Positions 5,301 to 53,727 of a stretch of 64,000 bases of DNA are shown piece after piece. A program made the translations under genes and the position numbers. The notes below the pieces were generated by a model. The model worked only from the letters and a program-made list of their open reading frames with translations, had not been told where the DNA came from and searched no databases. This stretch comes from Candidatus Parcubacteria bacterium (GTDB taxonomy: Bacteria > Patescibacteriota > Saccharimonadia > Saccharimonadales > 2-12-FULL-41-12). How positions within the stretch are numbered: the first letter of the stretch is position 1; each line of letters begins with the position of its first letter. Where the stretch lies: the NCBI GenBank assembly GCA_019347895.1, contig JAHWKM010000002.1, positions 8,565-72,564 of the forward strand, read 5' to 3'.

Positions 5301-6481
5301 ATGTCGAAACAGCAAGATAATGAGTTAGGGATCGGAACCAGACTAGTTCACGGGGGGCAACCGGCAGATCCCATCACTGGTGCAGTTGCACCGGTATTGA
5401 TCCGTAGCAAAACTTTTCAACAGCCGACTTTTGGTGTTGAGTCAAAATGGCAATACTCCAGAGGTAAGAATCCTACCCGTAGTATCCTGGAACGTCGGCT
5501 TGAAAGCCTGGCAGGAGACGGAAAAGCCACTGTATTCGGATCTGGCGATGCCGCTACCACTATGTTCCTCCTTACCCTCAAACCCGGTGATCATTTAATC
5601 TGTTGCCGCGAGTTATATGGGGGTACCATTCGTTTGCTGAATCAGCTTTTCGCGGACTTCGGAATCCGGGCTTCATATGTTGACATTGAGGATATCGAAG
5701 CCGTAAAAAAAGTGCAAACTCCCGAAACGGTAGCAATCTGGACGGAAAGTCCTACTAATCCAAAGCTGGGTGTTATTGACTTGACTAAAGTCGGCAATAT
5801 CGCCCGTAAGCTGAGACTTAGATTTATTGTTGATCTGACATTTGCCCCCCCTGTACGACGGACCCGTTCGAATACGGAGCTGAAACGGTTGTCTATAGCC
5901 TGAGTAAGTATTTCGCTGGGCACAATGATGTCATCGGAGGAGCAATCATAACCAAAAATCAGTCGTTGTACGACAGGCTATGTTGGTTGCAATGGTCGGT
6001 TGGAGCAGTGTTATCACCAGATGAGTGCTACCGTGCCATACAAGAACTTAAAACCCTGGAGCTGCGATGGAAACGAACCAGCGAATCTGCCCAAGCAATA
6101 GCCGAACATTTGAATATTCATGATCAGATTCAGGCCGTTTATTACCCGGGCCTACCCGGCCATACAGGCCATGACGTCGTCAAGAAACAAATGAAAAATG
6201 GTTTTGGCAGTGTTCTGGCCTTTGACCTTATGTCCGTTGATACAAGCTTAATGGCAAAATTTGTATCTAGTCTCCAAGAAAGCCAGTTAGTCGTATTCGG
6301 CGAAAGCTTAGGGAGTCCCGAAACTATACTTGCCCATCCGGTCACCATGGGTCACCGAAGCCTAACTCAGGCACATCTGGATGAGCTAAAAATAGGTAAT
6401 AATCTCTTTAGGCTTAGTGTGGGTTTTGAGGAACCCGCAGATATTATTCGCGTGCTTGATCAAGCATTAGATATTTTTTAG
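5301..6481 (+). pseudogene. Cystathionine gamma-synthase/lyase-family PLP enzyme, disrupted by a 1-nt frameshift in a C7 tract (5845-5851)
   Basis: ORFs 5301-5903 and 5966-6481 are the N- and C-terminal parts of one enzyme. Adding one C gives ...IVDLTFAPPCTTDPFEYGAETVVYSLSKYFAGHNDV..., restoring the SxSKY PLP-Lys motif. Confidence 0.75.
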
Positions 6482-6532
6482 CTATATGCGGGCGTCTAAA
6501 TTTTAAAAGATTGTTCCTCTCCTATGAGTATC

Positions 6533-6612
6533 TCCGAAAAAACTGGCCGCGGCGAAGTAAGACCGCCTCCACCACCTAAGCGACATAATGCAAAAAGAAC
6601 TCGGTTTATAAA
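6533..6612 (+). repeat. Duplicate of the dapB 3' end (compare 2701-2781), including the stop codon
   Basis: 36-nt perfect core CCTCCACCACCTAAGCGACATAATGCAAAAAGAACT at 2736-2771 and 6566-6601, with diverged flanks that still align. Confidence 0.85.
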
Positions 6613-6658
6613 ACTTTTTAAATAAGCCATTTCAACCGGACATTCCATGTCCGCTCAA

Positions 6659-6867
6659 CCAATATTTTTGAGTCAGCAAAAATATTGGATAAAAACTGAC
6701 AGGCGGCTTCCAGTTCTTGAGGAGTTCATTGTCAAAGGTCACAATGCTCGGAAAACTCAGCTTGCCCTTTATTAATTTTTAGCCTCGGCAAGCTTCAGAC
6801 ACTTCCTCGCGAGAAATTGTGCTTTTGACATTCACTCATCAGGAACTTCCAGAGCCTGAACAAAAGC
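6659..6867 (+). repeat. Family B structured repeat, copy 1 (diverged)
   Basis: Same helix layout as 53155-53390 and the reverse strands of 26090-26347 and 50230-50477. Hairpin CCAATATTTTTG..CAAAAATATTGG. Closing pairs CAGGC/GCCTG and AGTTC/GAACT replace TGGGC/GCCCA and CCGTC/GACGG. Confidence 0.6.
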
Positions 6868-6904
6868 TGAATCGAAAAGGCTTGCTTTTCGATAATCAAG
6901 ATTT

Positions 6905-7181
6905 GAGAAATTCAAGAATTTCTCATCCTATTTTGGCCAGCATTGATAAAACCGATTGAGGCGAATCAGCTTGGCTCGAATGGCTGATGCGAAACTAAGT
7001 CCTGTTCGCTCCTTGGATAAAATAGAACAGGACCGACCGAAGGGAGTCTTTCGCATCACGAGACAAGGTGGTATTTCGATTCAGTCGTGTTTTAGCACTT
7101 GCTGTCTGCTTTTTCGGTTCCTTTTTTTAGACAAAAAAGGAAATCGCTTGGAGCCATGAAAGGGCTGCGAAATGGCTTTTT
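6905..7181 (+). repeat. Family A structured repeat/candidate ncRNA, copy 1 (junction hairpin, core, terminator-like end)
   Basis: About 90% identical to the reverse strand of 22104-22406 and alignable with 53421-53712. Helices GATGCGAAA/TTTCGCATC and GTCCTGTTC/GAACAGGAC. AGCCAT..ATGGCT plus a T-run at 7152-7181. Confidence 0.65.
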
Positions 7182-7247
7182 AATATTTAGTTTGCAATAT
7201 CGTAATATTTTTGTTTTCATATAAAATAAATAGAGAGGAGTCAAAAC

Positions 7248-7733
7248 ATGAGCGAGCTAGCTGGATGTGCTGAATTTTCACGCGAGGGCGCTCCCAAGCT
7301 GATAAGCCACACTGCATTTTTTAACATGCGTTTCGCAGATTTAGAAGGTGATTTTGATGCTGCTGTTGCGTCTATAGAAACGGCAGAGGAGGCTTTACTT
7401 TTTTCTGCAGGGCTAGCTAAATTAGAAGAAATGTACGAACGTACCGACTCACAAAATTCCGGCCGTTGCGCTCTAGATATTATAGATGCTAGCCTTGAAA
7501 GGCAACTCGGTCCGGGTGTTTCTAATATAAAAGATATGTGGCGTGGCGCCCTTAGTCATGTGATATTTGGCAAAGAAACTCCCGGTATATGGCAATACCT
7601 TGTTGATGGGACGGATTTTGAAGCAGTAGGCTTAGATGAAACAATTGATTTTTCAAAGCAGGAATATGAGGAGGCAGGCACAGCGTTCAAAAGCGCCAAC
7701 AAAAGATTAGCCGAAGTTTCCGATAGTTTGTAA
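7248..7733 (+). CDS. Hypothetical acidic protein (161 aa)
   Basis: GAGAGGAG upstream of the ATG. No recognisable motif. Confidence 0.5.
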   Translation: MSELAGCAEFSREGAPKLISHTAFFNMRFADLEGDFDAAVASIETAEEALLFSAGLAKLEEMYERTDSQNSGRCALDIIDASLERQLGPGVSNIKDMWRGALSHVIFGKETPGIWQYLVDGTDFEAVGLDETIDFSKQEYEEAGTAFKSANKRLAEVSDSL

Positions 7734-11675: not shown

Positions 11676-13286
11676 TTATAATAATTTTTTCTTTAGGTTT
11701 GAAAAGGCTAAAATAGCTTCGTTCCGCCACTCCCATAAACCATAAAATAGCGCGCCGATTATACCGCCGACAGCTAGAAATAATCCTTGCTTACCAGCTG
11801 TAGATGCCGGAATATCCTGCACTGGTTTCTGGCCACTAGTGTTAAGAATACTGGCGACATTTCGGCAGCGGTTTGTTTGAGGATTGCGTTCCTTACCTTT
11901 TGCACAAGGTTTTAGTCCGGAGCCGGAAGTGGATTTTTTACAGCGGTTGGTTTTTGGATTGCGAATTTGATCAGCGGCGCACGGCTTTAAACCGGCGTCG
12001 GAAGCAGACTTTTTGCAACGGTTGGTTTGAGGATTTCTAAACTGATCTGGCGCACAGGCTTTAAGAACTGATGACAAGCTGGCCAGGTTACGGCAGCGGT
12101 TGGTTTCGGGGTTGCGAGTTTTGCCGGGAGCGCAGGGCGCGAGACCAGTTGTGGCGGTAATGATATTACAACGGTTCGTTTCAAGATTTCGCAATTGCCC
12201 TTCGGGACAAGGCTTGAATTTTATAAGTTCATTAACGTCGTTCGGCGTAAGCATAAATGTTTCAGCAAAACCACTAGAAAATAACGACCAAGAAGCATCG
12301 TCGCCTAAACCGCCAGGATATTCAACAGTTGATATTTCTGCGTCATTAGTGTTAATCAAATAAACCGTCCCGCCGGCAGAATTGGCAAGCGTAAGACCCG
12401 TTTCATCATTATAAAACGCCCTGTATTGACCCGGTGCTAAATTCTGCTGATCCAATACATACGACTTTGAGTTAGCCGTGGTTTCCAGGCCGCAGCCCTC
12501 AAGCAAAATAGATTCACTGGCCGGATTATGCAGCTCAATAAACTCCTTTCCCGCGTCAGCCCCGGCCGGATTAGGCAAAACCTCCGAAATAATAATCCCC
12601 TCACAGTTATTCGACTCAATAGGCTGTTCTTCTATCTCCTCGTTTGGTATATAGCCGCCAGTCACTGGATCAATCGGCAATGTTGGGGTCGAAAAAATTT
12701 CTCCCGCAGCATACAAAGGATTATCCGGTAAAATCCTTTTTACCGAATAACCGGCTGAGATTTCAGATGTTTTCGGCCAACTTTGGATTTGGTTCGCGCT
12801 ACCCCAGCCAATTTGATCCATAACGATACCTGCATCATCAACCAGCCTTACGTGGCCGCCGCTTTTAGCTAGCAAACCCGATGCAGCAGTGCTGCTTTGC
12901 CCAAAAAAAATGTCAGCATTTTGCATGTAGTTAACATAACTTACAAGCACATAGCCGCCCGTTATTATGACACCGTCAAAGGTAGCCAGAGTACGAGTTG
13001 GCGCAACCTGGAGGTTGCCACTATGGCCAGCTGAAAGATATTCTAGCCGCCAACCAGATAGACTTATTTCTGTATCTTCTGAGGCATTATGCAATTCAAT
13101 AAATTCCTGCTTGCCATCTTCAATCTCGCAAATTGTTGCCTCGACAGTCTTCCACTGTAAGCAGCCACCCGTCTGAACTTCGCTTATTACCACCGAGCTG
13201 CTAGACAATACTTGAGCTGAAATATTAAAAGCAGGCAACAGAATTGAAATAGCAAAAATAAACAATAAACCAAAGGTTTTTAACAT
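11676..13286 (-). CDS. Lamin-tail-domain (LTD) surface protein with five Cys-bracketed RNPxTNRC repeats and a C-terminal TM anchor
   Basis: Signal peptide. Two FIELHN LTD signatures. Repeats CxxxxxRN(P/L)xTNRC at aa 360-476 (nt 11859-12209). C-terminal hydrophobic helix. Confidence 0.65.
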   Translation of the reverse strand: MLKTFGLLFIFAISILLPAFNISAQVLSSSSVVISEVQTGGCLQWKTVEATICEIEDGKQEFIELHNASEDTEISLSGWRLEYLSAGHSGNLQVAPTRTLATFDGVIITGGYVLVSYVNYMQNADIFFGQSSTAASGLLAKSGGHVRLVDDAGIVMDQIGWGSANQIQSWPKTSEISAGYSVKRILPDNPLYAAGEIFSTPTLPIDPVTGGYIPNEEIEEQPIESNNCEGIIISEVLPNPAGADAGKEFIELHNPASESILLEGCGLETTANSKSYVLDQQNLAPGQYRAFYNDETGLTLANSAGGTVYLINTNDAEISTVEYPGGLGDDASWSLFSSGFAETFMLTPNDVNELIKFKPCPEGQLRNLETNRCNIITATTGLAPCAPGKTRNPETNRCRNLASLSSVLKACAPDQFRNPQTNRCKKSASDAGLKPCAADQIRNPKTNRCKKSTSGSGLKPCAKGKERNPQTNRCRNVASILNTSGQKPVQDIPASTAGKQGLFLAVGGIIGALFYGLWEWRNEAILAFSNLKKKLL

Positions 13287-13393
13287 CAGTCCCTCAAAGT
13301 TAATCCATTTAAACTACTGCCAAAACAATAAGTCTGTCAAGCACCAGCATAATAGTCTGTCTAAAAATACAACAATAAAACTGTCCCGAAATC

Positions 13394-13415
13394 TGTCCGA
13401 TCGGACATAAAACGG
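13394..13415. repeat. Family D palindrome TGTCCGATCGGACA+TAAAACGG
   Basis: Exact 14-nt palindrome. The same 22-mer recurs at 13962-13983, with variants at 45106-45141 and 35495-35549. Confidence 0.7.
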
Positions 13416-13439
13416 TACAAAAATGTTTCGGCTAAAGAT

Positions 13440-13976
13440 TTAAATTCGGTGAGCTTCGAAGACTTGAACGAAATTTTCTAACTTATTTTGTTTAATCTCA
13501 GATTTTAAATATTCACGCGAATCAAAAGTTGAGATCCAGACACTTTTTTGAACTTGGGAAAAAGCAAGTTCCCTTAGTAAAATTCTCAGCTGTCTTCTTT
13601 TAGATCGATCTTTTTCAGGGATATCAAAAATAACCATAAGGCTAGAGTTCTCAAGCTTTTCCGGACTAAATGGCATTAATTTGGACTGGCCTTTATTTGT
13701 TAGGCGCGGATTTTTGCCGTTCGCACTGAATTCAATTAAGCCATTTTTAACGGCGCGATAGTAAGTTGATCTGATAGCTTTTTTATTTATTTTGATCCGA
13801 TCGAGTTTTTCCAAGTCATTAAAAAACTGATTTGGCTTGAATGTTAATTTCACATTTGCTTCGGTGTAGGGAATAAGTCCGGCAAGTATATAATGTAGCG
13901 GCGATCTGTATTTTTTACCCAATCTATCATACTCACTCATAAATTTTATTGTACCAAAATATGTCCGATCGGACAT
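13440..13976 (-). CDS. PaaX-like/Cas2-fold putative transcriptional regulator (start may be the internal ATG at 13940)
   Basis: N-terminal wHTH-like region. Central VIFDIPEKDRSKRRQLRILLRELAFSQVQKSVWIS resembles the PaaX/Cas2-like core. A family D palindrome overlaps the annotated start. Confidence 0.4.
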   Translation of the reverse strand: MSDRTYFGTIKFMSEYDRLGKKYRSPLHYILAGLIPYTEANVKLTFKPNQFFNDLEKLDRIKINKKAIRSTYYRAVKNGLIEFSANGKNPRLTNKGQSKLMPFSPEKLENSSLMVIFDIPEKDRSKRRQLRILLRELAFSQVQKSVWISTFDSREYLKSEIKQNKLENFVQVFEAHRI

Positions 13977-13983
13977 AAAACGT
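13962..13983. promoter_or_regulatory. Family D palindrome at the 5' end of the PaaX-like gene (candidate operator)
   Basis: TGTCCGATCGGACATAAAACG identical to 13394-13414. Overlaps the ORF-track start codon, or lies 22 nt upstream of the alternative ATG at 13940. Confidence 0.45.
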
Positions 13984-14128
13984 AACAGTTTTTATTATTT
14001 TGAGATGGAAAAGGTTTTGAGTATTAGGAAGGCTTGGGTAAACGGACTGTAGGGGGAGAGTTTGGGGTAGGCTGTTGCAGGGAAGGTGTTTTTTGGCTAC
14101 AATTTATGGAAATAATCAGGGAGAAATT

Positions 14129-18212: not shown

Positions 18213-18339
18213 AACACCATATTGCTATTTTTGATAAATTAATTTCTATTTATAGGATTTATTACTTTATTGAAAGAAGTTATGTTTGGTTCTTTTTAAA
18301 ATAACATCTAAAATAAAGGTAATGGGTTGCCAAATTATT

Positions 18340-21285: not shown

Positions 21286-22103
21286 ATTTTTTAGAGAAGT
21301 TAGATAAAGCGGTTGAGAAAAATAACAGCTTGGTATGCGTGGGTCTCGACCCCGATACCGATAAACTGCCCGGACAATTCAAAAACTCTGATAATTCATT
21401 TTTTGAATTTAATAAAGCAATTATTGACGCGACGGCAGATTTGGTCTGCTGCTTTAAGCCAAACTCGGCCTTTTACGAGGCTCTGGGTTCGGACGGAATA
21501 CAAATGCTTGAAGAAACTTGTGACTATATCCGCGAAAAATATCCCGCGATACCGATATTACTAGATTTCAAAAGAGGCGATATTGGAAACACCAACCAGA
21601 AATACGCGCAGTTTGCTTTTGATTATTTAGAAGTTGACGCAGTTACGTTGCACCCGTTCTTTGGCAGAAGCTCTCTGCAGGCCTTTCTTGATTTCAAAGA
21701 TAAGGGCATGGTTATAATGATCAAATCTTCCAATGATGACAGCAGTGAATTGCAGGATTTAAAAGTTGAGGGAGGAAAACTCTTTGAGCACTTAGCTTTC
21801 CAAGTTAAAACTCACTGGAACGAGAACGAGAATTGTCTATTAATGGTTGGCGCGACTTATCCGAGAGAACTTGCTTCCGTACGGAAGATTGCAGGCGACA
21901 AAATGCAAATTTTAGTTCCGGGGGTCGGGGCACAGGGCGGCGTAGCCGAAATGTTAAAAGCCGGACTTAACAGCCAAGGGAGGGGGCTGATAGTAAGCGC
22001 CTCCCGCTCAGTTTTGTACGCGTCAAACAAAGAAGATTTCGCGGATGCCGCCCGCCAAGCCGCTGAAAAACTAAAAACTCAAATCAACCAATTCAGACCT
22101 TAG
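21282..22103 (+). CDS. pyrF: Orotidine-5'-phosphate decarboxylase (type 2)
   Basis: 273 aa. VGLDP, LLDFKRGDIGNT and VPGVGAQGG motifs. Start overlaps the purA stop. Confidence 0.85.
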   Translation: MNFLEKLDKAVEKNNSLVCVGLDPDTDKLPGQFKNSDNSFFEFNKAIIDATADLVCCFKPNSAFYEALGSDGIQMLEETCDYIREKYPAIPILLDFKRGDIGNTNQKYAQFAFDYLEVDAVTLHPFFGRSSLQAFLDFKDKGMVIMIKSSNDDSSELQDLKVEGGKLFEHLAFQVKTHWNENENCLLMVGATYPRELASVRKIAGDKMQILVPGVGAQGGVAEMLKAGLNSQGRGLIVSASRSVLYASNKEDFADAARQAAEKLKTQINQFRP

Positions 22104-22406
22104 TTTTCAACTAAGTCAAAGTTCTTGTGGCCAAGAACCAATTTCGGCGGTACTTCGTACCTACCCCGAGTTCCTTTTTTGTCTGAAAAAAGGAACCGAA
22201 AAAGCAGACAGCAGGTGAGAAAACACGACTGAAGCGAGATACCAGCTTGTCTCGTGATGCGAAAGACTCCTTTCAGTCGGCCCTGTTCCATTTTATCCAA
22301 GGAGCGAACAGGACTTGGTTTCGCATCAGCCATTCGAGACAAGCTGATTCGCCTCAATCGGTTTTATCAATGCTGGGTAAAAGCGATGAGAAAAACTTGT
22401 TTTCTC
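22104..22406 (-). repeat. Family A structured repeat/candidate ncRNA, copy 2 (immediately 3' of the helicase gene)
   Basis: The reverse complement aligns base-for-base with 6905-7143. Junction hairpin at 22388-22406, 11 nt after the helicase stop. Ends with hairpins GGTAC..GTACC and GTTCTTG..CAAGAAC. Confidence 0.65.
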
Positions 22407-22418
22407 AGAATAATAATT

Positions 22419-25400
22419 TTAGTTGTCTAAAGCAGATAGAATTTCATCTATGTGTTTACCTCTATCGTAACTTCCGTCCCATTTAGAGTATGGTATTCTG
22501 TAAAATTTCCATTTTGCTGCCTCTAAAATGCTTTGTCTTTCCCAGTCGCTTTGAACATATACATCCTCGATTTCGTCTTCGAAATGAGTTGGTCCGTCAC
22601 ATTCAATCGCTAATTTTTTGCCGTTAATTTTATTGTGGATAGCAAAGTCAATTTTAAAGCCACAAGATTCAACTTGATTTTGAATTAAATGATTGCTTTT
22701 TAGGTACGGCACTATGAGTTCATAAAAATCACGCTCAAAATTAGAATCAAACATATCTGTATCTACTCCGTCAGAGAACATTCTGGATGCCTTGCCGTTC
22801 TCTTCTACATATTCAAGATATCTTTTTATCCAGATTCCTTCTGGCCATTGTTCCGGTCTTAGAGAAGTTACGCAATGAACTTGGTGTTTGGCTCTCGAAA
22901 ACGCCACATTAACACGGCCTTCATTAAGTTCTCTGTTAATTTCGCCACCTTCGCCTGTTAATGAAATATACCGACTTTTTTCAGAAGGATCACTTATAGC
23001 AAATGAATAGATGATAATTTCTCTTTCGTCGCCCTGTATCCCTTCAATATTGGAAACTTTGATTGATTTATCGTCTATCATTCTTCTCAGTAATTCGGCT
23101 TGTTCTGTGAAGAAGGAAAGTACGCCAATCGACATATCTTTTGTTTGCTCGTCCATTTTAATTTCGCGTATAAGATTGCAGATATATTCTGCTTCATCTA
23201 CATTTGTCTTAAGAGATTCATCCCTCGATCTATTCGAGTCAATTATATGGTTTACCAGCACTCTATTCGTATCCTTGTAAGGTGTAAGTGAGGCATTGAC
23301 TATTTCAAGGGTTCTCTTTCTTGGTCTATAAAAGTATTCGTTTGAAAAACCAATCAATTCACGCGGCGAACGATAATGACTTCTCAGCACTGAACTTCTA
23401 AATCCTTGAAGTATGCCTATGTCCATAACAGACTTCACCGAATCAGACTCACTTTTTATTTGAAGTTCTTCAGGAATTGAATACTTTCTTGCCATCTCCA
23501 GTAATGCATTATTGGATTTAAACTTAATCGTTGTATCACGCATTTGTAATGTGTCGCCAAATAGTAGTGTATGTCTCGCTCGGGACATAGCGGGTATGGC
23601 ATAAGCAAGATTACACTGCGAGGCCTCGTCGATTATTACATAGTCAAAAATATTTAACTCACTCGGTACGATTCTACTCACATCTTCAAGGCTCATCAAC
23701 CACATAGGAAATAGATCTAAAATCGTCTTGAATACAGCCGGATCCGAGCGAAATGAATCATAAGTCTTATATGCCCGTTTAGATTTTTTAAATGTTCGAA
23801 CGGCTCGCTCAACATTCTGTCGGACGGTGGCGTGCGCCCATGCATTATCAAGCCTTGAAGATGTCTTATTACGTAAAGAGTTTTTTACAAATTCTTGATA
23901 CTGCTTTCTGGATTTATGCACTTCTTTATTGAGGGAGTTTATATCTTTAAGCCTTAGGTTGTCGATTTCCTGCTTTAATTCAATAGATTCTATTACTTTA
24001 TCTATGGCTGAATCACCATGTTTTTGTATAAGGTGTACTATTTCGGTATATTCGTCAGATTTTAACCCTAGGTTCTGAAGATTTTTTTTAGCATGAGTTT
24101 CATACTCAAGCATTGAGCGCCTTGTTTCTTCTGATTGAAATGCTAGTATCAAATCTTGAAGCTGAGACCCCAATTTCGTTTTACTTGGAGATCTATTAAA
24201 CTCATCCAGTATTTCTGAGATATAATTTCTTACCTCAACAGGCAGATTATTTGAAACATTCTTTTGTTTAGATAGGGATACTCGATTATGCAGTTTCCTT
24301 GTGATACTAAAGCCAGAATCTTTTATTTGAACCATTAGGCTGGTTTTCATCTGCTCAATATGTCCTGCCGAGTTAACGTAATATTCCATATTGATATAAC
24401 CAAGCTTATTAAAAATTTTTTCATGAGTTTTGTGGTTGCTAGCCACAAATTCTTTCATTTCTTTCAAATGTTTAAGTGTCTTTCTAATATCATTAATCCT
24501 TTCTAAAGGGCTGGCCGTTATAAATTTTTCCGGTTGTGAAATTTTTACATTGAATTCATCGAGATTATTTAGCTTATCTTTTAATTCAAAGTATTTCCTT
24601 TGATTTTGGAATTGGTCGTTATATTCATTTACGACCGATTCAATACTTTTATTTGGCTCTTGCTCAAAAGTACCTCGTCGTCTGTCTTCAATCACTGACT
24701 TTATTCTTGATAGTTCATTTGCGGCGCCATCTACGTCATCGTTAAGTGTATGCAACGCGGAATATCTATCTGGTATATACCCATATAGACCAGGGATATC
24801 TAAACTTTTAAGTAGATCTTTGACCACACGTATTGCCTGATCTTTCTGGCTGACAAAAAGGACTTTCTTATCATTCGCCGCTAAGTGGCATAGAAGGTTT
24901 GCAATTGTCTGCGACTTACCCGTGCCTGGCGGACCTTGAATTATAGAGGCCCTATTTTTTATTTGAGCTAAGACTTCACGCTGATATTTATCAGATAGAA
25001 ATGGAAAATATACTGAGCCTTCTGAACTATTAATATCAATTGTCTCATCTAGCTCGCGCTCATCCACAAAACCTGAAAGGGATGTTTCAAGCAGTTCGTC
25101 CTGCTCCGTGTCTACGAGATTATCAAGATCTTGCGTTAGGAAAAAATTACTTTTCGGTGCAAGCGATATGGATAGATATGCTAAATTAAGCGGTTCACCG
25201 CTGAAAACTACTTCTTCGCACAACCTTAATTCATTAAGCAACTCTTCGTATACTTGCTGAATGACTGTAGTGTCCACAGGTAAAGTAAATTTGCCTTCAA
25301 GCTCCATGCTATTTATTCTTTTTTGAAATTCTTGATATCGATCGGCCCCTAATACTTGTGACATAAATGAAAAACTGGGGGTTATGCGATCATCAAGAAG

Positions 25401-25892
25401 AGTTATTTGCTTTTTTATCCCATTATTTTCAATCTCTATAGGTATAGTAAAAACCGGAAACTGAATTTTCTTTTTTATAGATTCATCTGCCTCATCTTCT
25501 CCTTCAACCTCTAATACGTCTTTAGCGACAAGATCTACATAACCAAGATTGAGCTGGGTTTGTTTTGTAAAACTATCAGTATCAACTTTTAATTTTATTT
25601 CATCAAGTACATTGAGAAGTCTGCGCTGGTATTCGAACTCTTTTTTATTATCTCCCTCTAATTCTTCTATTTTCTTTAAATCTGACTCATAAAAAAGTTC
25701 ACACTTTATACCAAGCTGAATACCGTAAGATATGTCGTCTTCGTCTACGGCCGCAAGGATATCATTTAGTGATAGGATGTGCGGTTTTATCTGATCAGTT
25801 TTTAAGCTAGACCGCTGCCTTACTGGATTTACCATTCCGAGATATGTTTTTGCGTATAAAATTAAGTTTTTTAGTTCAACTACCGAAGACAT
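22419..25892 (-). CDS. Upf1/DNA2-like SF1 helicase with a long N-terminal DUF4011-like region and a C-terminal DUF559/Vsr-like PD-(D/E)xK nuclease domain
   Basis: 1157 aa. Walker A GPPGTGKS, Walker B VIIDEASQ, LFGDTLQM, HYRSPRELIGFSNEYFY, IQGDEREIII, NVAFSRAK. C-terminus KIDFAIH...LAIECDGPTHF...YRIPYSKW. Visibly more AT-rich than neighbouring genes (judged by eye, not computed). Confidence 0.8.
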   Translation of the reverse strand: MSSVVELKNLILYAKTYLGMVNPVRQRSSLKTDQIKPHILSLNDILAAVDEDDISYGIQLGIKCELFYESDLKKIEELEGDNKKEFEYQRRLLNVLDEIKLKVDTDSFTKQTQLNLGYVDLVAKDVLEVEGEDEADESIKKKIQFPVFTIPIEIENNGIKKQITLLDDRITPSFSFMSQVLGADRYQEFQKRINSMELEGKFTLPVDTTVIQQVYEELLNELRLCEEVVFSGEPLNLAYLSISLAPKSNFFLTQDLDNLVDTEQDELLETSLSGFVDERELDETIDINSSEGSVYFPFLSDKYQREVLAQIKNRASIIQGPPGTGKSQTIANLLCHLAANDKKVLFVSQKDQAIRVVKDLLKSLDIPGLYGYIPDRYSALHTLNDDVDGAANELSRIKSVIEDRRRGTFEQEPNKSIESVVNEYNDQFQNQRKYFELKDKLNNLDEFNVKISQPEKFITASPLERINDIRKTLKHLKEMKEFVASNHKTHEKIFNKLGYINMEYYVNSAGHIEQMKTSLMVQIKDSGFSITRKLHNRVSLSKQKNVSNNLPVEVRNYISEILDEFNRSPSKTKLGSQLQDLILAFQSEETRRSMLEYETHAKKNLQNLGLKSDEYTEIVHLIQKHGDSAIDKVIESIELKQEIDNLRLKDINSLNKEVHKSRKQYQEFVKNSLRNKTSSRLDNAWAHATVRQNVERAVRTFKKSKRAYKTYDSFRSDPAVFKTILDLFPMWLMSLEDVSRIVPSELNIFDYVIIDEASQCNLAYAIPAMSRARHTLLFGDTLQMRDTTIKFKSNNALLEMARKYSIPEELQIKSESDSVKSVMDIGILQGFRSSVLRSHYRSPRELIGFSNEYFYRPRKRTLEIVNASLTPYKDTNRVLVNHIIDSNRSRDESLKTNVDEAEYICNLIREIKMDEQTKDMSIGVLSFFTEQAELLRRMIDDKSIKVSNIEGIQGDEREIIIYSFAISDPSEKSRYISLTGEGGEINRELNEGRVNVAFSRAKHQVHCVTSLRPEQWPEGIWIKRYLEYVEENGKASRMFSDGVDTDMFDSNFERDFYELIVPYLKSNHLIQNQVESCGFKIDFAIHNKINGKKLAIECDGPTHFEDEIEDVYVQSDWERQSILEAAKWKFYRIPYSKWDGSYDRGKHIDEILSALDN

Positions 25893-25953
25893 GCATTAAT
25901 TATATCTTCATTAGACCGTCTAGCATAATCCCTAAATATCAGCCAAAAATCTG

Positions 25954-26083
25954 AGAAAATCTGAGATTTTCTTATCTGCTTTTGTTCAGGCGCTCTGGAA
26001 GTTCCCGCCGTCGACCGGGCTTTGGCGGACAGGCCTGATCAGTGAATGCCAAAATAGTATTTATAGAAAAACAGGTTTTTTCT
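25954..26083 (-). repeat. Junction modules upstream of the helicase gene: two GAGAAA..TTTCTC-type hairpins (25954-25972, 26065-26083) bracketing a fragment of a copy-1-type B unit (25978-26048)
   Basis: The reverse complement of 25978-26048 matches 6826-6867 (CATTCACT-ATCAGG...AACTTCCAGAGC-CTGAACAAAAGC) apart from a 29-nt insert. Confidence 0.55.
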
Positions 26084-26089
26084 ATTCTA

Positions 26090-26347
26090 ATTGTTGGGTT
26101 TGGGCATTGAGAGCCGTCCTGATTGGCGAATGTCAAAAACACAATTACTAGCGAGGCAGTGTTTAAGCCCCTCACCTTTTTGGATGTAAAAAGGTGAGGG
26201 GTGAGTTTGCCGAGCATTGTGTCTTTTGACAATGAGACAGTCAAGACGGATCGACGCCCAAGAGTTTTTGCATTCTTTTGTCGGCACAAAAGAATGGACT
26301 TGCTTCTTTGTCGAAAGAAGTTGGCTTGGTTCTTCGACCAGAAGAAC
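26090..26347 (-). repeat. Family B structured repeat, copy 2 (starts at the purP stop codon)
   Basis: TTGGGC..GCCCAA, CCGTC/GACGG and TGTCAAAAGACACAAT/ATTGTGTTTTTGACA helices. Interior hairpin GCCCCTCACCTTTTT..AAAAAGGTGAGGGG. Outer hairpins covary with the other copies. Confidence 0.65.
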
Positions 26348-29743: not shown

Positions 29744-30955
29744 ATGTCAGCTGTTAAATTTCATATAACTACTAGAAGCGGTAATGCCCGTACAGGGGTA
29801 ATAGCCACGCCCCATGGGCCGATAAAGACCCCGGCCTTTATCCCCGTCAGTACGAAAGCGACAGTAAAAACGCTAGACGTTCATGACCTGCAAAAACTAA
29901 AAGCACCGGCAGTGCTGGCCAATGCATATCATCTGTATTTAAGGCCCGGACCAGAGCTGATAGCCAAATTGGGAGGAGTAGGGGAATTTATGGGCTGGAA
30001 CGGGCCGACCTTCACCGACAGCGGCGGCTTCCAGGTTTTTTCGCTCGGCTTTGGCCTTGAACATGGCGTCGGCAAGGTCGCTAATATCTTTCCCGACGAA
30101 GATTTGCAAGGCCGGGCCTCGCAAACTAGGAAAAGGTTGTTTAATATTGATAAGGACGGAGCTAACTTCGTCTCGCACCTGGACGGCTCAAAACACAGGT
30201 TTACTCCTGAAAACTCAATAGAAATACAGCAAATGCTCGGCGCCGATATCATCTTCGCTTTTGACGAATGTACTTCGCCGCTGCACGGAAAAAAATATAC
30301 TGCCGAGGCAATGGAGCGCACTCATGCCTGGGCAAAAAGATGCCTGCAAGCTTGGACCAACAGAGACAAGCAAGGACTATATGGAATAATCCAGGGCGGC
30401 GCGTATAAGGATTTACGGATAGCTAGCAGCGAATTCATCTGTGCTTTAGATACGCCGGGAATCGCTATCGGCGGCAGTTTGGGTAAGAGTAAAAAAGATA
30501 TGTACGAGATAATGGACTGGACTATACCCGTTTTGCCGGAGGATAAGCCGCGGCATTTACTGGGAATCGGCGAGGTAGAAGACCTTTTCGGTGCCAGCGC
30601 CAGGGGAATCGACACTTTTGACTGCGTGTCGCCGACTAGAAATGCCCGCAACGGCAGCGTATATATAAGGCCGGAAAATGGCGGAACGGCAAAAAATAAA
30701 TATTCTATCAATATCAGGGCTGGAAAATATTCTCAAAATACAGAACCTATTGACCCGGGCTGTAAGTGTTTTACCTGTCAAAATCACAGCCGGGCCTATA
30801 TCCGACACCTATTCGTCAGCGAGGAACTACTAGCCATGCGCCTGGCGACTATCCACAATCTGCACTTCATCTTTACCTTAATGGCTGAAATCCGCCACGC
30901 TATTCAACAAGAGACGTTGCATAATTTAGCCGACAATTGGCAAATAAACCCTTAA
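29744..30955 (+). CDS. tgt: tRNA-guanine transglycosylase (queuine tRNA-ribosyltransferase)
   Basis: ARTGVIATPHGPIKTPAFIPV, TDSGGFQV, and the Zn site CKCFTCQNHSRAYIRHL. Confidence 0.9.
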   Translation: MSAVKFHITTRSGNARTGVIATPHGPIKTPAFIPVSTKATVKTLDVHDLQKLKAPAVLANAYHLYLRPGPELIAKLGGVGEFMGWNGPTFTDSGGFQVFSLGFGLEHGVGKVANIFPDEDLQGRASQTRKRLFNIDKDGANFVSHLDGSKHRFTPENSIEIQQMLGADIIFAFDECTSPLHGKKYTAEAMERTHAWAKRCLQAWTNRDKQGLYGIIQGGAYKDLRIASSEFICALDTPGIAIGGSLGKSKKDMYEIMDWTIPVLPEDKPRHLLGIGEVEDLFGASARGIDTFDCVSPTRNARNGSVYIRPENGGTAKNKYSINIRAGKYSQNTEPIDPGCKCFTCQNHSRAYIRHLFVSEELLAMRLATIHNLHFIFTLMAEIRHAIQQETLHNLADNWQINP

Positions 30956-33215: not shown

Positions 33216-33380
33216 GGAGAGGTGTCCGAGTGGCTGAAGGAGCACGCTTGGAAAGCGTGTATGCGCAGCAATGCGCATCGAGGGTGAGAACTGCCGGTGG
33301 CAGTTCGCAAGGAAATCTTCTCTTGAAAACTTGTTTTCAAAGACGAAGTTTCGGGGTCGCTGTAAGCGACCGAATCCCTT
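33216..33380 (+). pseudogene. Disrupted tRNA-Ser(GGA)-like copy: intact 5' two-thirds, ~85-nt structured insert in the T-loop, no 3' acceptor strand
   Basis: GGAGAGGTGTCCGAGTGGCTGAAGGAGCACGCTTGGAAAGCGTG plus a variable arm, then GAGGG-[33286-33370]-CGAATCCCT. The following ATTATTA cannot pair with GGAGAGG. Confidence 0.55.
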
Positions 33381-33394
33381 ATTATTAATATGTT

Positions 33395-33484
33395 GGAGGA
33401 GTGGCCGAGTGGTTTAAGGCGCACGCTTGGAAAGCGTGTTGAGGAGCAATTCTCTCGCAGGTTCAAATCCTGTCTCCTCCGCCA
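33395..33484 (+). tRNA. tRNA-Ser (anticodon GGA), CCA encoded
   Basis: Hand-folded cloverleaf: acceptor GGAGGAG/CTCCTCC, anticodon arm CACGC-TTGGAAA-GCGTG, long variable arm, T arm GCAGG-TTCAAAT-CCTGT. Confidence 0.9.
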
Positions 33485-38127: not shown

Positions 38128-38148
38128 TTGCAAGGCCGGGCCTTGCAA
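38128..38148. repeat. REP hairpin TTGCAAGG-CCGGG-CCTTGCAA (left flank of the RAYT gene)
   Basis: Perfect 8-bp stem. Its reverse complement equals the right-flank hairpin apart from one base. Confidence 0.7.
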
Positions 38149-38163
38149 AATAAGAATTATGGT

Positions 38164-38775
38164 CTAATAATCTGCCAGGTCGTATTTTATTTCATCAAGC
38201 ATACTTTTGTGCTCTTCATAGTCATTCAAAAATTCTAAGTAGTCAGTATCCTCCATCATTTCCGCGATGCGATTAGGCAACAACCATTCCGCCTGTCTTT
38301 CGCCCAGATAATAAGGCAGGCTGGAAAACTCCCACTGCCTCCATTGCCGGGGGTTTAAGTGAATATATCGGGAAATATGCTGCAAATAACCTTCGTTCAG
38401 TATGTGGCTTGCCTTGTATCGGTCTTGGAACAGCGGTCCAACACGTGTATATTTTTTATTAAAATAGGTGCTATAAGAACTGATTACCGCCAGCATCAGC
38501 TCTGTCAGCGCGTTTTTATCGTGGATATAAATTAATAAATGATAATGGTTTGGCATTAAGCAAAAAGCCAAAAGCTCTATTCTGCCATTCATGTGTGAAT
38601 ATTCGCGGCCAGAATCATCTTTGGTAGGCTTTTTACTCAGGTATCGCTTGAAAAGATTCAGAAAAACAGCATAGTCCTGCTCGTCGATGAATATCTTCCT
38701 CTTCTCAACGCCGCGATTATATACATGATAGAAAGAATCATCCGCATAAATTTTCAATCTGTTTCTGCTTGGCAT
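38164..38775 (-). CDS. IS200-like Y1 (HUH) transposase of the REP-associated tyrosine transposase (RAYT) type
   Basis: 203 aa. YHVYNRG, HUH motif PNHYHLL, catalytic Tyr context SRYIHLNP. Flanked by inverted REP hairpins. Confidence 0.8.
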   Translation of the reverse strand: MPSRNRLKIYADDSFYHVYNRGVEKRKIFIDEQDYAVFLNLFKRYLSKKPTKDDSGREYSHMNGRIELLAFCLMPNHYHLLIYIHDKNALTELMLAVISSYSTYFNKKYTRVGPLFQDRYKASHILNEGYLQHISRYIHLNPRQWRQWEFSSLPYYLGERQAEWLLPNRIAEMMEDTDYLEFLNDYEEHKSMLDEIKYDLADY

Positions 38776-38803: not shown

Positions 38804-38824
38804 TTGCGAGGCCCGGCCTTGCAA
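38804..38824. repeat. REP hairpin TTGCGAGG-CCCGG-CCTTGCAA (right flank of the RAYT gene, inverted orientation)
   Basis: See 38128-38148. Confidence 0.7.
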
Positions 38825-45070: not shown

Positions 45071-45105
45071 ATCCCAGCCAATAAGAACTAAAAATATAAT
45101 TACTG

Positions 45106-45141
45106 TTCCGTTTTATGGCCGATCGGACACAAAACGGAACA
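45106..45141. repeat. Family D palindrome (GTTCCGTTTT-ATGGCCGATCGGACAC-AAAACGGAAC)
   Basis: Read directly. Lies between the DAHP synthase stop and the pip-like gene, so it could also act as a bidirectional terminator hairpin. Confidence 0.65.
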
Positions 45142-48480: not shown

Positions 48481-48758
48481 ATCGTTCGCTCCGCTCACTG
48501 CTCACCCCACAAAGCGGAATCAAGAAACCCGAAATAAATTCGTCTTTCTTTCAGCTTAATATTCTGAAGTCAAAGTAATCTTTTGTAGGAAAAAACTTTA
48601 AGCAATGATATATTATTAGTTACCTTCGCTACGGCGGAGTACTCAACAATAATTTAACTCATATCTCAGTACGCTGGGACAAAGGAGGCAACATGGAATT
48701 AGATTTTTAAATTCGCAATTTGCGAATTTTTTTATTTATTAATACAAGGAGAATAATA

Positions 48759-50219
48759 ATGAGTGTTATTGAAACAACTCCCAACGTAAGAGCCATGGAA
48801 AGCCTTAAGCATGTTGGGTACTCAAATGAAGCAGCGATAGCAGATTTAGTAGACAATTCAATGGATGCGGGTGCCGACCGAGTACATATACAAATTGGCG
48901 CCGATAAAATAGCCATTGTCGATAATGGTAGCGGGATGGACCGGTTTACCCTAGAAGAAGCGATAAAGCTAGGATCAAATACCCAACGAAGTTCTGGTGA
49001 CCTTGGTAAATTTGGAATGGGCTTAGTGACAGCATCTCTTTCCCTCGGCCGGAAATTAACGGTACATACAGAAGATGAAGGTTCGCTAAAGGCATACACG
49101 GTTAAGCAAGACCTTAACTTGATGATTGACAAGAATAAATATTACGCAGATTTAGACGAGAGCGTAAAGATAGGAAAAAGTGGCACTTCAGTCGTAATTC
49201 AGAATCTTGATAATCTAAAGTATAAGCACGAAACGCTGGTGAATAGAGTCAGGGAAGAACTTTCCAGAATCTTTCGACACTATATAAAGGCCGGCAAAAT
49301 TATTAGCGTTAATGGCGAGAAACTGACTGCTTTAGACCCTTTAATGCTCGATGAGGAGGGAGCCGAGCTTTATTCGGATGATACTTATGATGTTAACGGA
49401 AAGATTATTAGAATCCGGGTGGCATTTCTCCCAAAGTTTTCAAAAGAAGAGCAGAAACGCCGAAATGTAAATAGCAGAACACAAGGGTTCTATTTAGTTA
49501 GAAACTCGCGTGAAATTGTGACAGCCAGTACTTTAGGTATGTTTACCCGCGACTGGTGGAATACTCGGATACGAATAGAGGTAATGTTCTCCGATGATCT
49601 CGATGCTGAATTCGGCATTGATTTTACAAAAAGTAAGTTAACACTTAAAAACTCTGTTCGTAATTTAATACACGAGGCAACTCGTAAGCAAATTTCCCAC
49701 TTAATAAACCGTACAAAAAGTACAGCTAAACTTGATGACAAAGAGGCCATAGTAAAGCACAGCGAGAGCGAGCAAACAATTAGACAAAAAAATAAGCTGC
49801 TTATTCTTCCCAAAGGGAATAAGGAAATGAGAGAAACTGCCGGTGGCGCAGCTCGTAAAAAAACGAAGGCTGAAGGTAAAAGCAAAGATAGGCTCAACGT
49901 TTCAAAAACACACGAAGGTAACAAGGATCATCCAGCACGTGGTATCGAAATTCTTGAAGGTCACCATTCACAGTTTGGGCCTATATTTTACTGCTATATG
50001 GTCGGTCAAAAGACCATCGTAGAATGGAACTATGATCATCCATTCTATGAGCGCATGCTGCTAAGATTTAGAGAAGAGAAGGATGTTATTACAGCCCTAG
50101 ACTACCTTGCATATTCTTTTGGTGTTGCAGAAATGACAGTACAGACCGAGGAGTCTCAGGACGTGTTCGGAAATTATCATAGTGTAGCTTCCAGTAACCT
50201 TAGAACACTCTTATCTTAA
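48759..50219 (+). CDS. GHKL-superfamily ATPase (HATPase_c_3, MORC-like), orphan
   Basis: AGGAG SD before the ATG at 48759. N box IADLVDNSMDAGA, G1 box VDNGSGM, G2 box GKFGMGL. AT-rich. No adjacent methylase or nuclease partner. Confidence 0.75.
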   Translation: MSVIETTPNVRAMESLKHVGYSNEAAIADLVDNSMDAGADRVHIQIGADKIAIVDNGSGMDRFTLEEAIKLGSNTQRSSGDLGKFGMGLVTASLSLGRKLTVHTEDEGSLKAYTVKQDLNLMIDKNKYYADLDESVKIGKSGTSVVIQNLDNLKYKHETLVNRVREELSRIFRHYIKAGKIISVNGEKLTALDPLMLDEEGAELYSDDTYDVNGKIIRIRVAFLPKFSKEEQKRRNVNSRTQGFYLVRNSREIVTASTLGMFTRDWWNTRIRIEVMFSDDLDAEFGIDFTKSKLTLKNSVRNLIHEATRKQISHLINRTKSTAKLDDKEAIVKHSESEQTIRQKNKLLILPKGNKEMRETAGGAARKKTKAEGKSKDRLNVSKTHEGNKDHPARGIEILEGHHSQFGPIFYCYMVGQKTIVEWNYDHPFYERMLLRFREEKDVITALDYLAYSFGVAEMTVQTEESQDVFGNYHSVASSNLRTLLS

Positions 50220-50229
50220 GTCTATTAAT

Positions 50230-50477
50230 TTTTGGGGGGTTGGGCATAGAGAGCCGTCCTGATTGACGAGTGTCAAAACAACAATTTTAAGGCTTGGGAG
50301 CTAGCCGAACGAAATCTTTAGAAATTGATAAAGAGAGAGGCCGACTGAAAGGAGTCGCCCAAGCCATTGTTGTTTTTGACAAAGAGACAGTCACGACGGA
50401 TCGACGCCCAATCGGTTTTGGATACTTTTGCCGAGGCAAAAGTATTGATTTGCTTCTTTATCTAAAAGAAGTAGTCT
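50230..50477 (-). repeat. Family B structured repeat, copy 4 (starts at the PEGA-gene stop and abuts the 3' end of the GHKL gene)
   Basis: Reverse complement about 90% alignable with 53177-53390. Carries the GGCCGACTGAAAGGAGTC motif (50339-50356). No family A partner. Confidence 0.65.
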
Positions 50478-52095: not shown

Positions 52096-53154
52096 TTGAG
52101 CGAGCCCAAGAACTACATCGAAATCAATGGTCGCAAGTACGATTCGCGTACTGGCCAGATGATAGGCAGCCACATTCCGCCAGGGACTACTGATAGCAGA
52201 CCGGTGGCTAGCAGATCGATAAACATGGACGGGGTTATTCGCAAGCCTCAGGCTAAAACAAATAATTCGGTTTTTTCGCCGCGTATTAAGCCTGCCAAAC
52301 CTGCCAATGTGGCACGCTCCGTTAAGCCTGCCAAGACTAAGTCTGTGCAAAAATCCACTACGTTAATGCGGCCAGCCGTAAAAAAACCCGAGCATAAGCC
52401 CGCCGTAAAAACACAGGAACACAACCCCCCTGTTATCAAGCATGCACCGGAAGGACGGCTTAAAAGAGCCGGCCAAGTTAAGAAAAGCCCGCACATCAGG
52501 CGGTTTAACGCTTCCCAGCACCGGCCTGAGGTGGTAAAACGACAGGCTCCCATGCATGTAGTCCATCAAAAGCCTGCCGCCCCGCGGGAAGAAAATGTCA
52601 TCCAAAAATCTATTAATGAGTCCATCGACCAGTTTGATCAGGTAATACATGATGCTACATCGCACTTAGAAACATACGTAGAAAAGCACAAGCCGAAAAA
52701 ACCGCGCAAACTGGTGTTTACGGCCGCTAGCTTGTCAGTAATTTTACTTTGCGGCTTGCTGATCTATCAGGCCGTACCAGCCGTAAATGTTAAGCTAGCC
52801 GGCAACAAAGCCGGTTTCTCAGCCGGTTTGCCCGCTTACAGCCCGGCAGGCTATGGCCTTAGTGATAACGTTCAGGCTAGCTCCGGTGAAGTCACGCTAG
52901 CTTACAGCTCGCGCACCGACAGTAAAGGCTACAAAGTGCATCAGCAGCCCAGCAACTGGAACAGCCAGTCCCTAGTGAATAATTTCCTTCTAGCCGAAAA
53001 CAAACCCTACCAGACTTACGAAAACAACGGCAAGACAATCTATATTTATGAAGAAACCAATGCTACCTGGGTAGACGGCGGAATTTGGTACAGAATTGAA
53101 GGCGACGCCAGTCTTACCTCCGACCAACTTTTGCGAATCGCCAACGGCTTGTAA
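52096..53154 (+). CDS. Hypothetical membrane protein, basic Pro/Lys-rich N-terminal half (start uncertain: TTG at 52096 or a downstream ATG)
   Basis: The ORF-track start at 51874 overlaps the convergent PEGA gene and is unlikely. One TM helix (LVFTAASLSVILLCGLLIY) followed by a C-terminal domain. Confidence 0.5.
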   Translation: MSEPKNYIEINGRKYDSRTGQMIGSHIPPGTTDSRPVASRSINMDGVIRKPQAKTNNSVFSPRIKPAKPANVARSVKPAKTKSVQKSTTLMRPAVKKPEHKPAVKTQEHNPPVIKHAPEGRLKRAGQVKKSPHIRRFNASQHRPEVVKRQAPMHVVHQKPAAPREENVIQKSINESIDQFDQVIHDATSHLETYVEKHKPKKPRKLVFTAASLSVILLCGLLIYQAVPAVNVKLAGNKAGFSAGLPAYSPAGYGLSDNVQASSGEVTLAYSSRTDSKGYKVHQQPSNWNSQSLVNNFLLAENKPYQTYENNGKTIYIYEETNATWVDGGIWYRIEGDASLTSDQLLRIANGL

Positions 53155-53390
53155 GTTCTTCCAATGAAGAACCAAATTGCTACTTTTGCGCCGGCAAAAG
53201 TAGCCAAAAGCTCTTGGGCGTCGATCCGTCGTGACTGCCTCATTGTCAAAAGCAACAATGGCTTGGGCGACTCCTTTCAGTCGGCCCAGTCTTTCTATAA
53301 ATTTCATAAGCAAAGACTGGGCTAGCTCCCAAGCCTTAAAATTGTTGTTTTGACACTCGAGGTCAGGACGGCTCTCTATGCCCAAACCCA
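53155..53390 (+). repeat. Family B structured repeat, copy 3 (starts 1 nt after the upstream stop)
   Basis: GTTCTTC-CAAT-GAAGAAC, CTACTTTTGC..GCAAAAGTAG, TTGGGCG..GCCCAA, CCGTC/GACGG, TGTCAAAAGCAACAAT/ATTGTTGTTTTGACA. Confidence 0.65.
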
Positions 53391-53420
53391 AAAATTTGAA
53401 TTATCATTATTTTATTACCT

Positions 53421-53712
53421 GAGAAAAACAAGTTTTTCTCATCTGCTTTTGGTCAGCATTGATAAAACCGATTGGTTTGAATCAGGCTGCTTGGAGTCAC
53501 TTAGGCCAAACCAAGTCCTGTTCGCTCCTTGAGTGAAATAGAACAGGACCGACTGGAAGGAGTCTTTGGCCTAACCAAGTAGTCTGGTATCTCAAGCCAG
53601 TAGTGTTTTATCACCGCTGCGGCATTTTTTGCCTACTTTTTGTTGCTGCAGAGAAAAAGTAGGAATTCGGTTCCTTATTGAAGGAACAAGTTTGGTTCTT
53701 TTATAAAGAACC
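53421..53712 (+). repeat. Family A structured repeat/candidate ncRNA, copy 3 (ends 15 nt before gltX)
   Basis: Junction hairpin GAGAAAAA-CAAG-TTTTTCTC, CAGCATTGATAAAACCGATTG, TAGGCCAAA/TTTGGCCTA (covaries with copies 1 and 2), GTCCTGTTC/GAACAGGAC, GGTTCCTT..AAGGAAC. Confidence 0.65.
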
Positions 53713-53727
53713 TCTAAAATTAATCTG

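Follow-up and report, generated by a model that had tools for sequence, protein, structure and literature searches.

Among the closest described systems are the MICs, in which the ends of an IS surround passenger genes without a transposase, as has been seen for IS231-derived elements in Bacillus cereus and for Tn3-family elements in Xanthomonas (PMC4337579, PMC5444012). The sequence family analysed here, found in a 64-kb stretch of DNA from a Saccharibacteria-like CPR MAG (the whole of which is referred to as the window), is like MITEs and MICs in that it has terminal inverted repeats, is small when empty (~560 nt, with its two arms back to back), occurs in multiple copies and in empty or loaded forms, shows presence/absence polymorphism, and has no transposase inside; when loaded, its inverted ends enclose passenger genes, as those of a MIC do. 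It differs from both in its arms, which are ~280 nt long and each form a long, covarying, imperfect hairpin, and in that no convincing target-site duplication was found, and no cognate IS or transposase in the window or at the metagenome loci examined.

Another point of comparison is the group of REP, BIME and REPIN sequences with their RAYT partners, where intergenic, non-coding palindromes occur as inverted doublets, are multi-copy and mosaic, and have their hairpins maintained, all of which applies to the present family. However, the family is about 5-10 times larger and encloses genes, and the RAYT-like gene of the window is flanked by another palindrome. Families A and B, as the two kinds of arm are called below, do not consist of ~20-40-nt palindromes with copies flanking a RAYT gene, and identity with a REP/REPIN-RAYT system was rejected. 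A likeness also exists to the attC sites of integrons, which are imperfect palindromes in which the fold is conserved over the sequence, and which bound promoter-poor accessory or defence cassettes with a fixed cargo polarity. An integron has one attC per cassette in a same-orientation array, whereas the arms described here come in inverted pairs around each cassette and are dispersed; attC sites measure 55-141 nt, the arms are larger, and no GTTRRRY core was seen in them. Since the pairs are inverted and lie at dispersed loci, with no integrase among the window ORFs scanned and no intI or attI in the window, an identity as integron cassettes was likewise rejected.

In the pdif (Xer) modules of Acinetobacter plasmids, and in the minimal mobile and Correia elements of Neisseria, modules lie between inverse sites or are exchanged between conserved flanks in a competent host. 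The present family also consists of discrete gene modules with inverse sites or conserved flanks; it differs in that its sites are hundreds of nucleotides long and structured, and any role of Xer or of transformation would be hypothetical. The general kind of system is known, in the shape of inverted-repeat non-autonomous elements and of cassette systems, and it is the form that differs here, with paired ~280-nt covarying hairpin arms around defence genes at the ends of convergent genes. The genomes of Saccharibacteria and other CPR are tiny and densely packed, the ways in which these bacteria acquire and exchange accessory genes are poorly understood, and a search of the literature for CPR or Saccharibacteria repeats, MITEs or cassettes of such a form returned nothing. 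The explanation that we favour, and whose chances we judge to be about evenly balanced, is that A and B form the structured arms of a gene cassette that is non-autonomous and either mobile or exchangeable, MITE-like when empty and MIC-like when loaded.

Arms and units in the window

The original prediction placed three copies of a structured repeat, family A, in the window, and a direct check of the 64 kb confirms three homologous copies where they were placed: copy 1 at 6905-7178 (+), copy 2 at 22406-22104 (-) and copy 3 at 53421-53712 (+). Identity is 93% between copies 1 and 2 and ~77% between copy 3 and either of them. Family A was further held to lie always 3' of a second family, B; this does not hold for copy 2, which is split from its B copy (26346-26066) by a 3.5-kb ORF, and one B copy (50477-50221) has no A partner, the window containing three A arms and four B arms in all. 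Every B copy is homologous to the reverse complement of A, with local alignment z-scores of up to 12-24 as opposed to ~0-5 for the direct orientation, and nhmmer with an A profile matches the B sites on the opposite strand at E-values down to 3.5e-18. This correspondence indicates that A and B are the right and left arms of one inverted-repeat unit, and the best-supported reading of the sequence comparisons is a bipartite inverted-repeat element of Saccharibacteria (CPR) with A as its right arm and B as its left arm. The asymmetric apical region makes the same relationship visible to the eye: in B, GACTCCTTYCAGTCGG precedes a hairpin, and in A the hairpin comes first, with CCGACTGGAAGGAGTC after it. 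In two metagenome loci (L058 and L063) an inverted A-type arm takes the upstream position, so that the A and B types can be seen as variants of one thing; left arms and right arms diverged long ago into separate lineages.

An arm measures ~280 nt and is built up of several hairpins as a mosaic, which runs, from the outside, from an outer palindrome (GTTCYT-N3-5-ARGAAC) or a AAGCCATTTC tip through a ~165-nt imperfect hairpin to an inner AT-rich hairpin, which in the metagenome copies is followed by ATGATT. Palindromes of the form GTTCYT-N3-10-ARGAAC in the 64 kb all stand at outer arm ends (5 of 5, with 0.1 expected by chance), and alignments of left ends with right ends show the terminal inverted repeats. 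Family B has a long hairpin of its own, in which 14 of 47 pairs are compensated. Folding of the complete doublet at 53155-53712 (-237 kcal/mol, z = -13) gives two separately folded arms, with the termini of the doublet paired to each other.

Unit 1 lies on the forward strand and carries no cargo. Its left arm, a B of subtype I at 6620-6891 (+), has the tip AAATAAGCCATTTC at 6620, a long hairpin at 6698-6861 and an inner hairpin at 6873-6891 (+; CGAAAAG-GCTTG-CTTTTCG). Its right arm is A copy 1 (6905-7178, +), which begins 13 nt from the inner hairpin of the left arm with an inner hairpin of its own (6905-6924, CAAG loop), continues with a long hairpin (6938-7104) and a distal hairpin (7116-7142), and ends in AGCCAT...ATGGCT, with the tip GAAATGGCTT being the inverse of the left tip. 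This end of copy 1 had been taken for a canonical terminator; the terminator scan finds none, and the site forms the unit's terminal inverted repeat. A dapB-like gene has its final 47 nt (2735-2781) duplicated with 94% identity at 6565-6611, immediately before the left arm of unit 1. The two dapB-end copies bracket a 3.8-kb block, containing a thrC-like gene and genes for PLP enzymes of Cys/Met metabolism, one of them split (5301-5903 and 5966-6481), and this block looks like an insertion between dapB and unit 1.

Unit 2 lies on the reverse strand and is loaded. Its left arm, a B of subtype II at 26066-26346 (-), has its long hairpin at 26261-26100 and its inner hairpin at 26082-26066, and the outer palindrome GTTCTTCTGGTCGAAGAAC abuts a purP-like stop codon (26347-26329). 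Next to it, at 25951-26050 (-), direct reading reveals a remnant, the 3' part of a subtype-I left arm with the inner hairpin GAAAATCTCAGATTTTC, which meets the subtype-II arm at a TTTTG microhomology. An intact subtype-II left arm together with a fragment of a subtype-I left arm is the footprint of a replacement of cassette plus arm. The cargo (22419-25892, -) encodes a 1157-aa SF1 helicase (AAA_11/AAA_12) with a C-terminal MTES_1575 restriction-endonuclease-like domain, which resembles the anti-phage PDC-S37, ProA and Hhe proteins through partial matches scoring below the family cut-offs; its G+C content is 36-39%, as opposed to ~45% around it. The right arm, A copy 2 (22104-22406, -), is of subtype I, with an inner hairpin at 22406-22388, a long hairpin at about 22378-22212, and an outer palindrome at 22138-22121 (GTTCTTGGCCACAAGAAC), which a distance of 17 nt separates from the stop codon of pyrF.

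Unit 3 is again on the forward strand and without cargo. Its left arm, a B of subtype II (53155-53405, +), begins immediately 3' of the upstream TAA with an outer palindrome (53155-53172) and has its long hairpin at 53214-53385. The right arm, A copy 3 (53421-53712, +), consists of an inner hairpin (53421-53440), a long hairpin (53454-53619), two further hairpins (53631-53663 and 53670-53687) and an outer palindrome (53694-53712). A 54-nt stretch at 18284-18337, upstream of a guaA-like gene, is 74% identical to the outer end of this arm and its flank (53690-53743) and may be a remnant of an arm tip. The remaining arm of the window, a solo B of subtype II at 50221-50477 (-) with a long hairpin at 50411-50240, is truncated at its inner end, where it meets the stop codon of a convergent gene for an MzaB-like ATPase (48720-50219, +). 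The product of that gene is a GHKL ATPase (HATPase_c_3) that matches MzaB at E = 2e-32, below the family cut-off, and the gene may be another defence gene at an arm.

Fold, strand and the RNA explanations

Each family A copy folds as a ~165-nt imperfect hairpin, with fold z-scores of -4.6 for copy 1 and -9.5 for copy 3. The second helix was found as originally described (GATGCGAAA/TTTCGCATC against TAGGCCAAA/TTTGGCCTA), and so were the TGGTAT, the distal hairpin and the CAAG-loop hairpin with its covarying stem. As for the helix GTCCTGTTC/GAACAGGAC, it is present, but the description of it as invariant was too strict, as copy 2 and several metagenome copies have U.G in it. The block CAGCATTGATAAAACCGATTG, which had been read as single-stranded, is actually the 5' strand of the basal helix, where it pairs with CAGTNGTGTTTTAxCAxxGCTG. 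Unpaired motifs kept in the family are CCGAC...GGAGTC and CUGGUAUCUC. A loop-loop pseudoknot of CUCCUU with AAGGAG was considered and rejected, as its pairing is limited to an invariant CUC/GAG that shows no covariation, with uncompensated changes.

Covariation was assessed on the RNAalifold structure of eight full-length family A copies. In this set, 16 of the 61 predicted pairs are changed on both sides, compared with 4-8 in controls with the partners slid, and 91.3% of cells form a standard pair, compared with 33-42% when slid; the observed covariation values were matched by 0 of 500 shuffles. Between copy 2 and copy 3 there are 12 double compensatory changes, 2 single changes that keep a pair and 6 that break one. 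The excess of compensatory changes on which the original prediction depended is therefore real, and covariation above the controls indicates that the fold is under selection or otherwise actively maintained, and is not simply a matter of recent duplication. The keeping of an imperfect hairpin in each arm is equally expected of a functional RNA, which counts against the cassette explanation.

As for coding, the ORFs called over family A at 6956-7159 and 22100-22357 are artefacts, as had been suspected. The 67-aa frame is interrupted in copy 3, and neither this ORF nor a six-frame pseudo-protein profile of the eight copies had a protein match among 5.8 billion protein clusters; with a broken frame and zero homologues, a small protein-coding gene is ruled out. 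Covariance models of Rfam 15, run over the whole window, report only two tRNAs at gathering threshold and nothing at A or B, while permissive scans of 6400-7300, 53100-53760 and four metagenome loci give only noise over the arms (E at least 0.5), in line with the earlier statement that family A belongs to no known RNA family. HEARO/omega RNA, group I/II intron domains and T-box were each rejected for A, as none gave a covariance score at gathering threshold, and blastn against phage and plasmid collections gave no relevant match to the family.

Folding energy favours the sense strand for all 8 A copies compared and the antisense strand for 6 of the 8 B copies, which is expected of inverted copies and not of arms shaped within one transcript. 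When pairs are taken from folds of both strands, G.U and A.C stand at 35:36 for A and 18:19 for B, which is no strand preference; an apparent sense-strand bias was an artefact of using a one-strand structure, and it disappears when the pairs are counted fairly. Terminator and promoter scans gave nothing consistent, and no promoter-like site was found upstream of A at loci 1 and 3.

These results bear on the proposal of the original prediction, namely that A is a stand-alone structured ncRNA gene family, acting in trans or as a cis-regulator, for which the strong covariation, the conserved unpaired motifs and the lack of coding potential all speak. We consider this very improbable, given that A is the inverted homologue of B within a symmetric unit, that the promoter scan of loci 1 and 3 and the balance of wobble pairs are as just described, that the candidate pseudoknot does not covary, and that the genes downstream are unrelated to one another (a 161-aa ORF, gltX, infA, or a convergent gene). 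What stands of the proposal is a conserved, structured, non-coding repeat with no Rfam match; what falls is its self-contained character as an RNA gene, as B corresponds to the reverse complement of A and both are arms of one unit. A caution follows for searches for RNA motifs, in which strong covariation within a repeat is not, on its own, a sign of an RNA gene.

A different role for RNA would be that of REP/BIME/ERIC/Correia-type intergenic repeats, which spread from one intergenic region to another and act mainly as 3'-UTR hairpins to stop read-through or to shield mRNA from exonucleases, with the genes between B and A being ordinary neighbours. All arms are intergenic and usually begin at a stop codon or a few bases from it, the A and B copies of the window are all oriented like the upstream gene, and the folds are extremely stable, with covariation that retains the imperfect hairpin, all of which fits such repeats; BIMEs also form mosaics of alternating inverted units. 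We nevertheless hold this explanation to be doubtful, though with a real chance of being right, because the enclosed genes differ from unit to unit, are mostly of defence type and low in G+C, and are missing at the same site in relatives, because the units have sharp, symmetric boundaries at their inner hairpins, because the features of intrinsic terminators are inconsistent, and because B is not more stable on the transcribed strand. If the arms belong to a cassette, as we favour, their transcripts would still form very stable RNA hairpins, which would probably insulate or stabilise transcripts as a secondary effect.

Cargo and its replacement between purP and pyrF

A metagenome scan yielded eight true homologues (L031, L032, L034, L036, L058, L062, L063 and L064), which are 77-88% identical to the window copies; an earlier scan with an apical-helix pattern had given 0 matches. 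A 19-mer scan of 185,579 GTDB species representatives gave only nine chance matches in unrelated phyla, and in the two blocks of viral contigs scanned there were seed-only matches; the family is seen in only two lineages among the data searched. Five of the metagenome contigs break off within an arm or where it ends, as is expected of multi-copy repeats in assemblies. Sixteen Ga0224511 contigs (L038-L065) were rejected as homologues, as they carry an unrelated repeat that has the 19-mer GCATTGATAAAACCGATTG in common with family A apparently by chance; this repeat, for example at L045 1398-3459, is ~2.1 kb long and highly repeated, with ~200-bp terminal inverted repeats and no long ORF.

Units of the family are either empty or enclose one to three accessory genes. 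The inner ends of window loci 1 and 3 and of L036 are 13-35 nt apart, which marks these as empty doublets. Between the arms of the other units, seven different cargo sets were found, mostly of anti-phage type and with no transposase among them. In addition to the helicase of unit 2, they comprise an RT_UG14 defence reverse transcriptase in L031 (E = 2.6e-135, full length), an HNH-RecQ/DpdF-like helicase and two small ORFs in L063, an HSDR_N-type nuclease in L062, a 307-aa membrane protein preceded by a LOOT RNA in L064 and L034, a 350-aa membrane protein in L058 and a 73-aa ORF in L032. The LOOT RNA (RF03000; L064 566-677, +, and the same region of L034) scores 74.5 bits, with the gathering score at 46.4 (E = 3e-13), and within the cargo region it lies upstream of the 307-aa ORF and overlaps its start. 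Cargo boundaries are sharp and mirrored at the inner hairpins, reading ...CGAAAAA-N5-TTTTTCG ATGATT, then cargo, then AATCAT CGAAAAAcaagTTTTTCG..., and the cargo is directed from B to A in 5 of 5 independent units with distinguishable arms. A group II intron was rejected for L031, which has no Rfam group II match and scores 43 bits with the model for group II RTs, whose cut-off is 300, and for the family in general, as the reverse transcriptase of L031 is an RT_UG14 (DRT) and other units hold cargo that is not RT.

Unit 2 of the window and L031 occupy the same site, in the order purA-pyrF, A, cargo, B, purP-purP, with the same flanks and different cargo. In four relatives (L067, L075, L076 and L077) the stop codons of purP and pyrF overlap or are 2 nt apart, and no arm is present in up to 20 kb; across the relatives compared at this site (L067-L078) there is no A- or B-like sequence and no long hairpin, and two further relatives have other small ORFs there. 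What is observed at this one orthologous site is thus both presence/absence polymorphism and replacement of cargo. Across the core, window copy 3 and the A arm of L031 share 86-91% identity, compared with 69-71% at the DNA level for purP, pyrF and purA. PurP of L031 is 76% identical to that of the window, and PurP of element-free relatives is 80% identical, so that L031 is no closer to the window than they are. With only two lineages and no match among species representatives, the case for movement is built on comparisons and not on movement seen.

According to the cassette explanation, a unit would insert between the stop codons of convergent housekeeping genes, which overlap in relatives; the arms would stay in place while the cargo is swapped; and the arms are much more alike between lineages than the surrounding genes. 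The arms may double as homology arms for the replacement of a cassette after natural transformation. A structured arm pair would in this way mark sites at which anti-phage genes are inserted or replaced between overlapping housekeeping genes. Searching between the arms is a practical way to discover new defence genes in CPR metagenomes, and the arms could possibly be of use for the engineering of Saccharibacteria.

The same observations may be read without any dedicated enzyme, with the arms serving as conserved, multi-copy homology tracts for RecA-dependent recombination after natural transformation, much as in neisserial 'minimal mobile elements' but with repeats as the flanks. Saccharibacteria are naturally transformable, and a ComEC-like competence protein is encoded in the window. 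The occurrence of different cargo between conserved arms at the same site and the chimeric join in unit 2 agree with exchange of this kind, as does the 3' end of purP beside the unit, where the window and L031 share 87% identity, more than any other pair, with the rest of the gene at 71%. However, this excess of flank identity is small: in the recombination-tract check the signal on the purP side is weak, and the gene end on the pyrF side shows no excess identity. Enzyme-free exchange also leaves unexplained why the hairpin of each arm is kept up by compensatory change, and how a unit with defined outer palindromes was first inserted between overlapping stop codons, and we rate it as quite unlikely.

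Candidate enzymes and other repeats of the window

No transposase or recombinase is associated with any unit in the window or at the metagenome loci, and no autonomous IS with cognate ends was found in the window or the metagenome loci examined. Comparison of the flanks for target-site duplications gave only AT-rich imperfect matches, such as TTTTAAAT and TTTAATAT at unit 1, with none visible at unit 2, unit 3 or L031 and none convincing anywhere. The imperfect hairpins may be recognition signals, folded as single-stranded DNA or extruded as cruciforms, for a recombinase or transposase that acts in trans. If the arms are recombination signals, the mechanism of mobility would be one not known before. 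Taken further, this would give a cassette-exchange system of CPR not described before, in which long hairpins folded in single-stranded DNA are the recombination signals of a dedicated enzyme, and defence cassettes are inserted and swapped at convergent gene ends; we think this unlikely, and were it true, it would amount to an integron-like function with a different architecture, made up of paired inverted arms and dispersed sites and lacking intI.

The sole transposase-like gene of the window is a RAYT-like IS200/Y1 gene at 38164-38775 (-), which matches Y1_Tnp at E = 4e-11 and REP_Tyr_transpos at E = 3.9e-12, the latter match falling short of the family cut-off. On both sides of the gene, at 38128-38148 and 38804-38824, stand inverted copies of a 21-nt palindrome, TTGCRAGGCCNGGCCTYGCAA, that is unrelated to A and B. 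A third copy of TTGCRAGGCCNGGCCTYGCAA, at 30104-30124, lies in frame inside a tgt ORF, in a loop that is of variable length among relatives.

Three other kinds of repeat were encountered in the window. A 38-nt palindromic repeat, TGTMCCGAAAT.TGTCCGATCGGACATAAAACG..., is present at 13382-13419, 13950-13987 and 45104-45141; the first two copies flank a PaaX/Cas2-like gene (13440-13976), the third stands at 45.1 kb, and the copies may be operator sites. The 5' half of tRNA-Ser(GGA) is present a second time, as a 45-nt stretch with 87% identity at 33216-33260, 179 nt upstream of the intact gene (33395-33484); ARAGORN calls only the downstream gene, and the partial copy may be the remnant of an integration site. 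Finally, five tandem units of 75-78 nt at 11866-12213 lie inside the gene for a 536-aa Lamin-tail-domain protein (11676-13286), which indicates that this repeat is coding.
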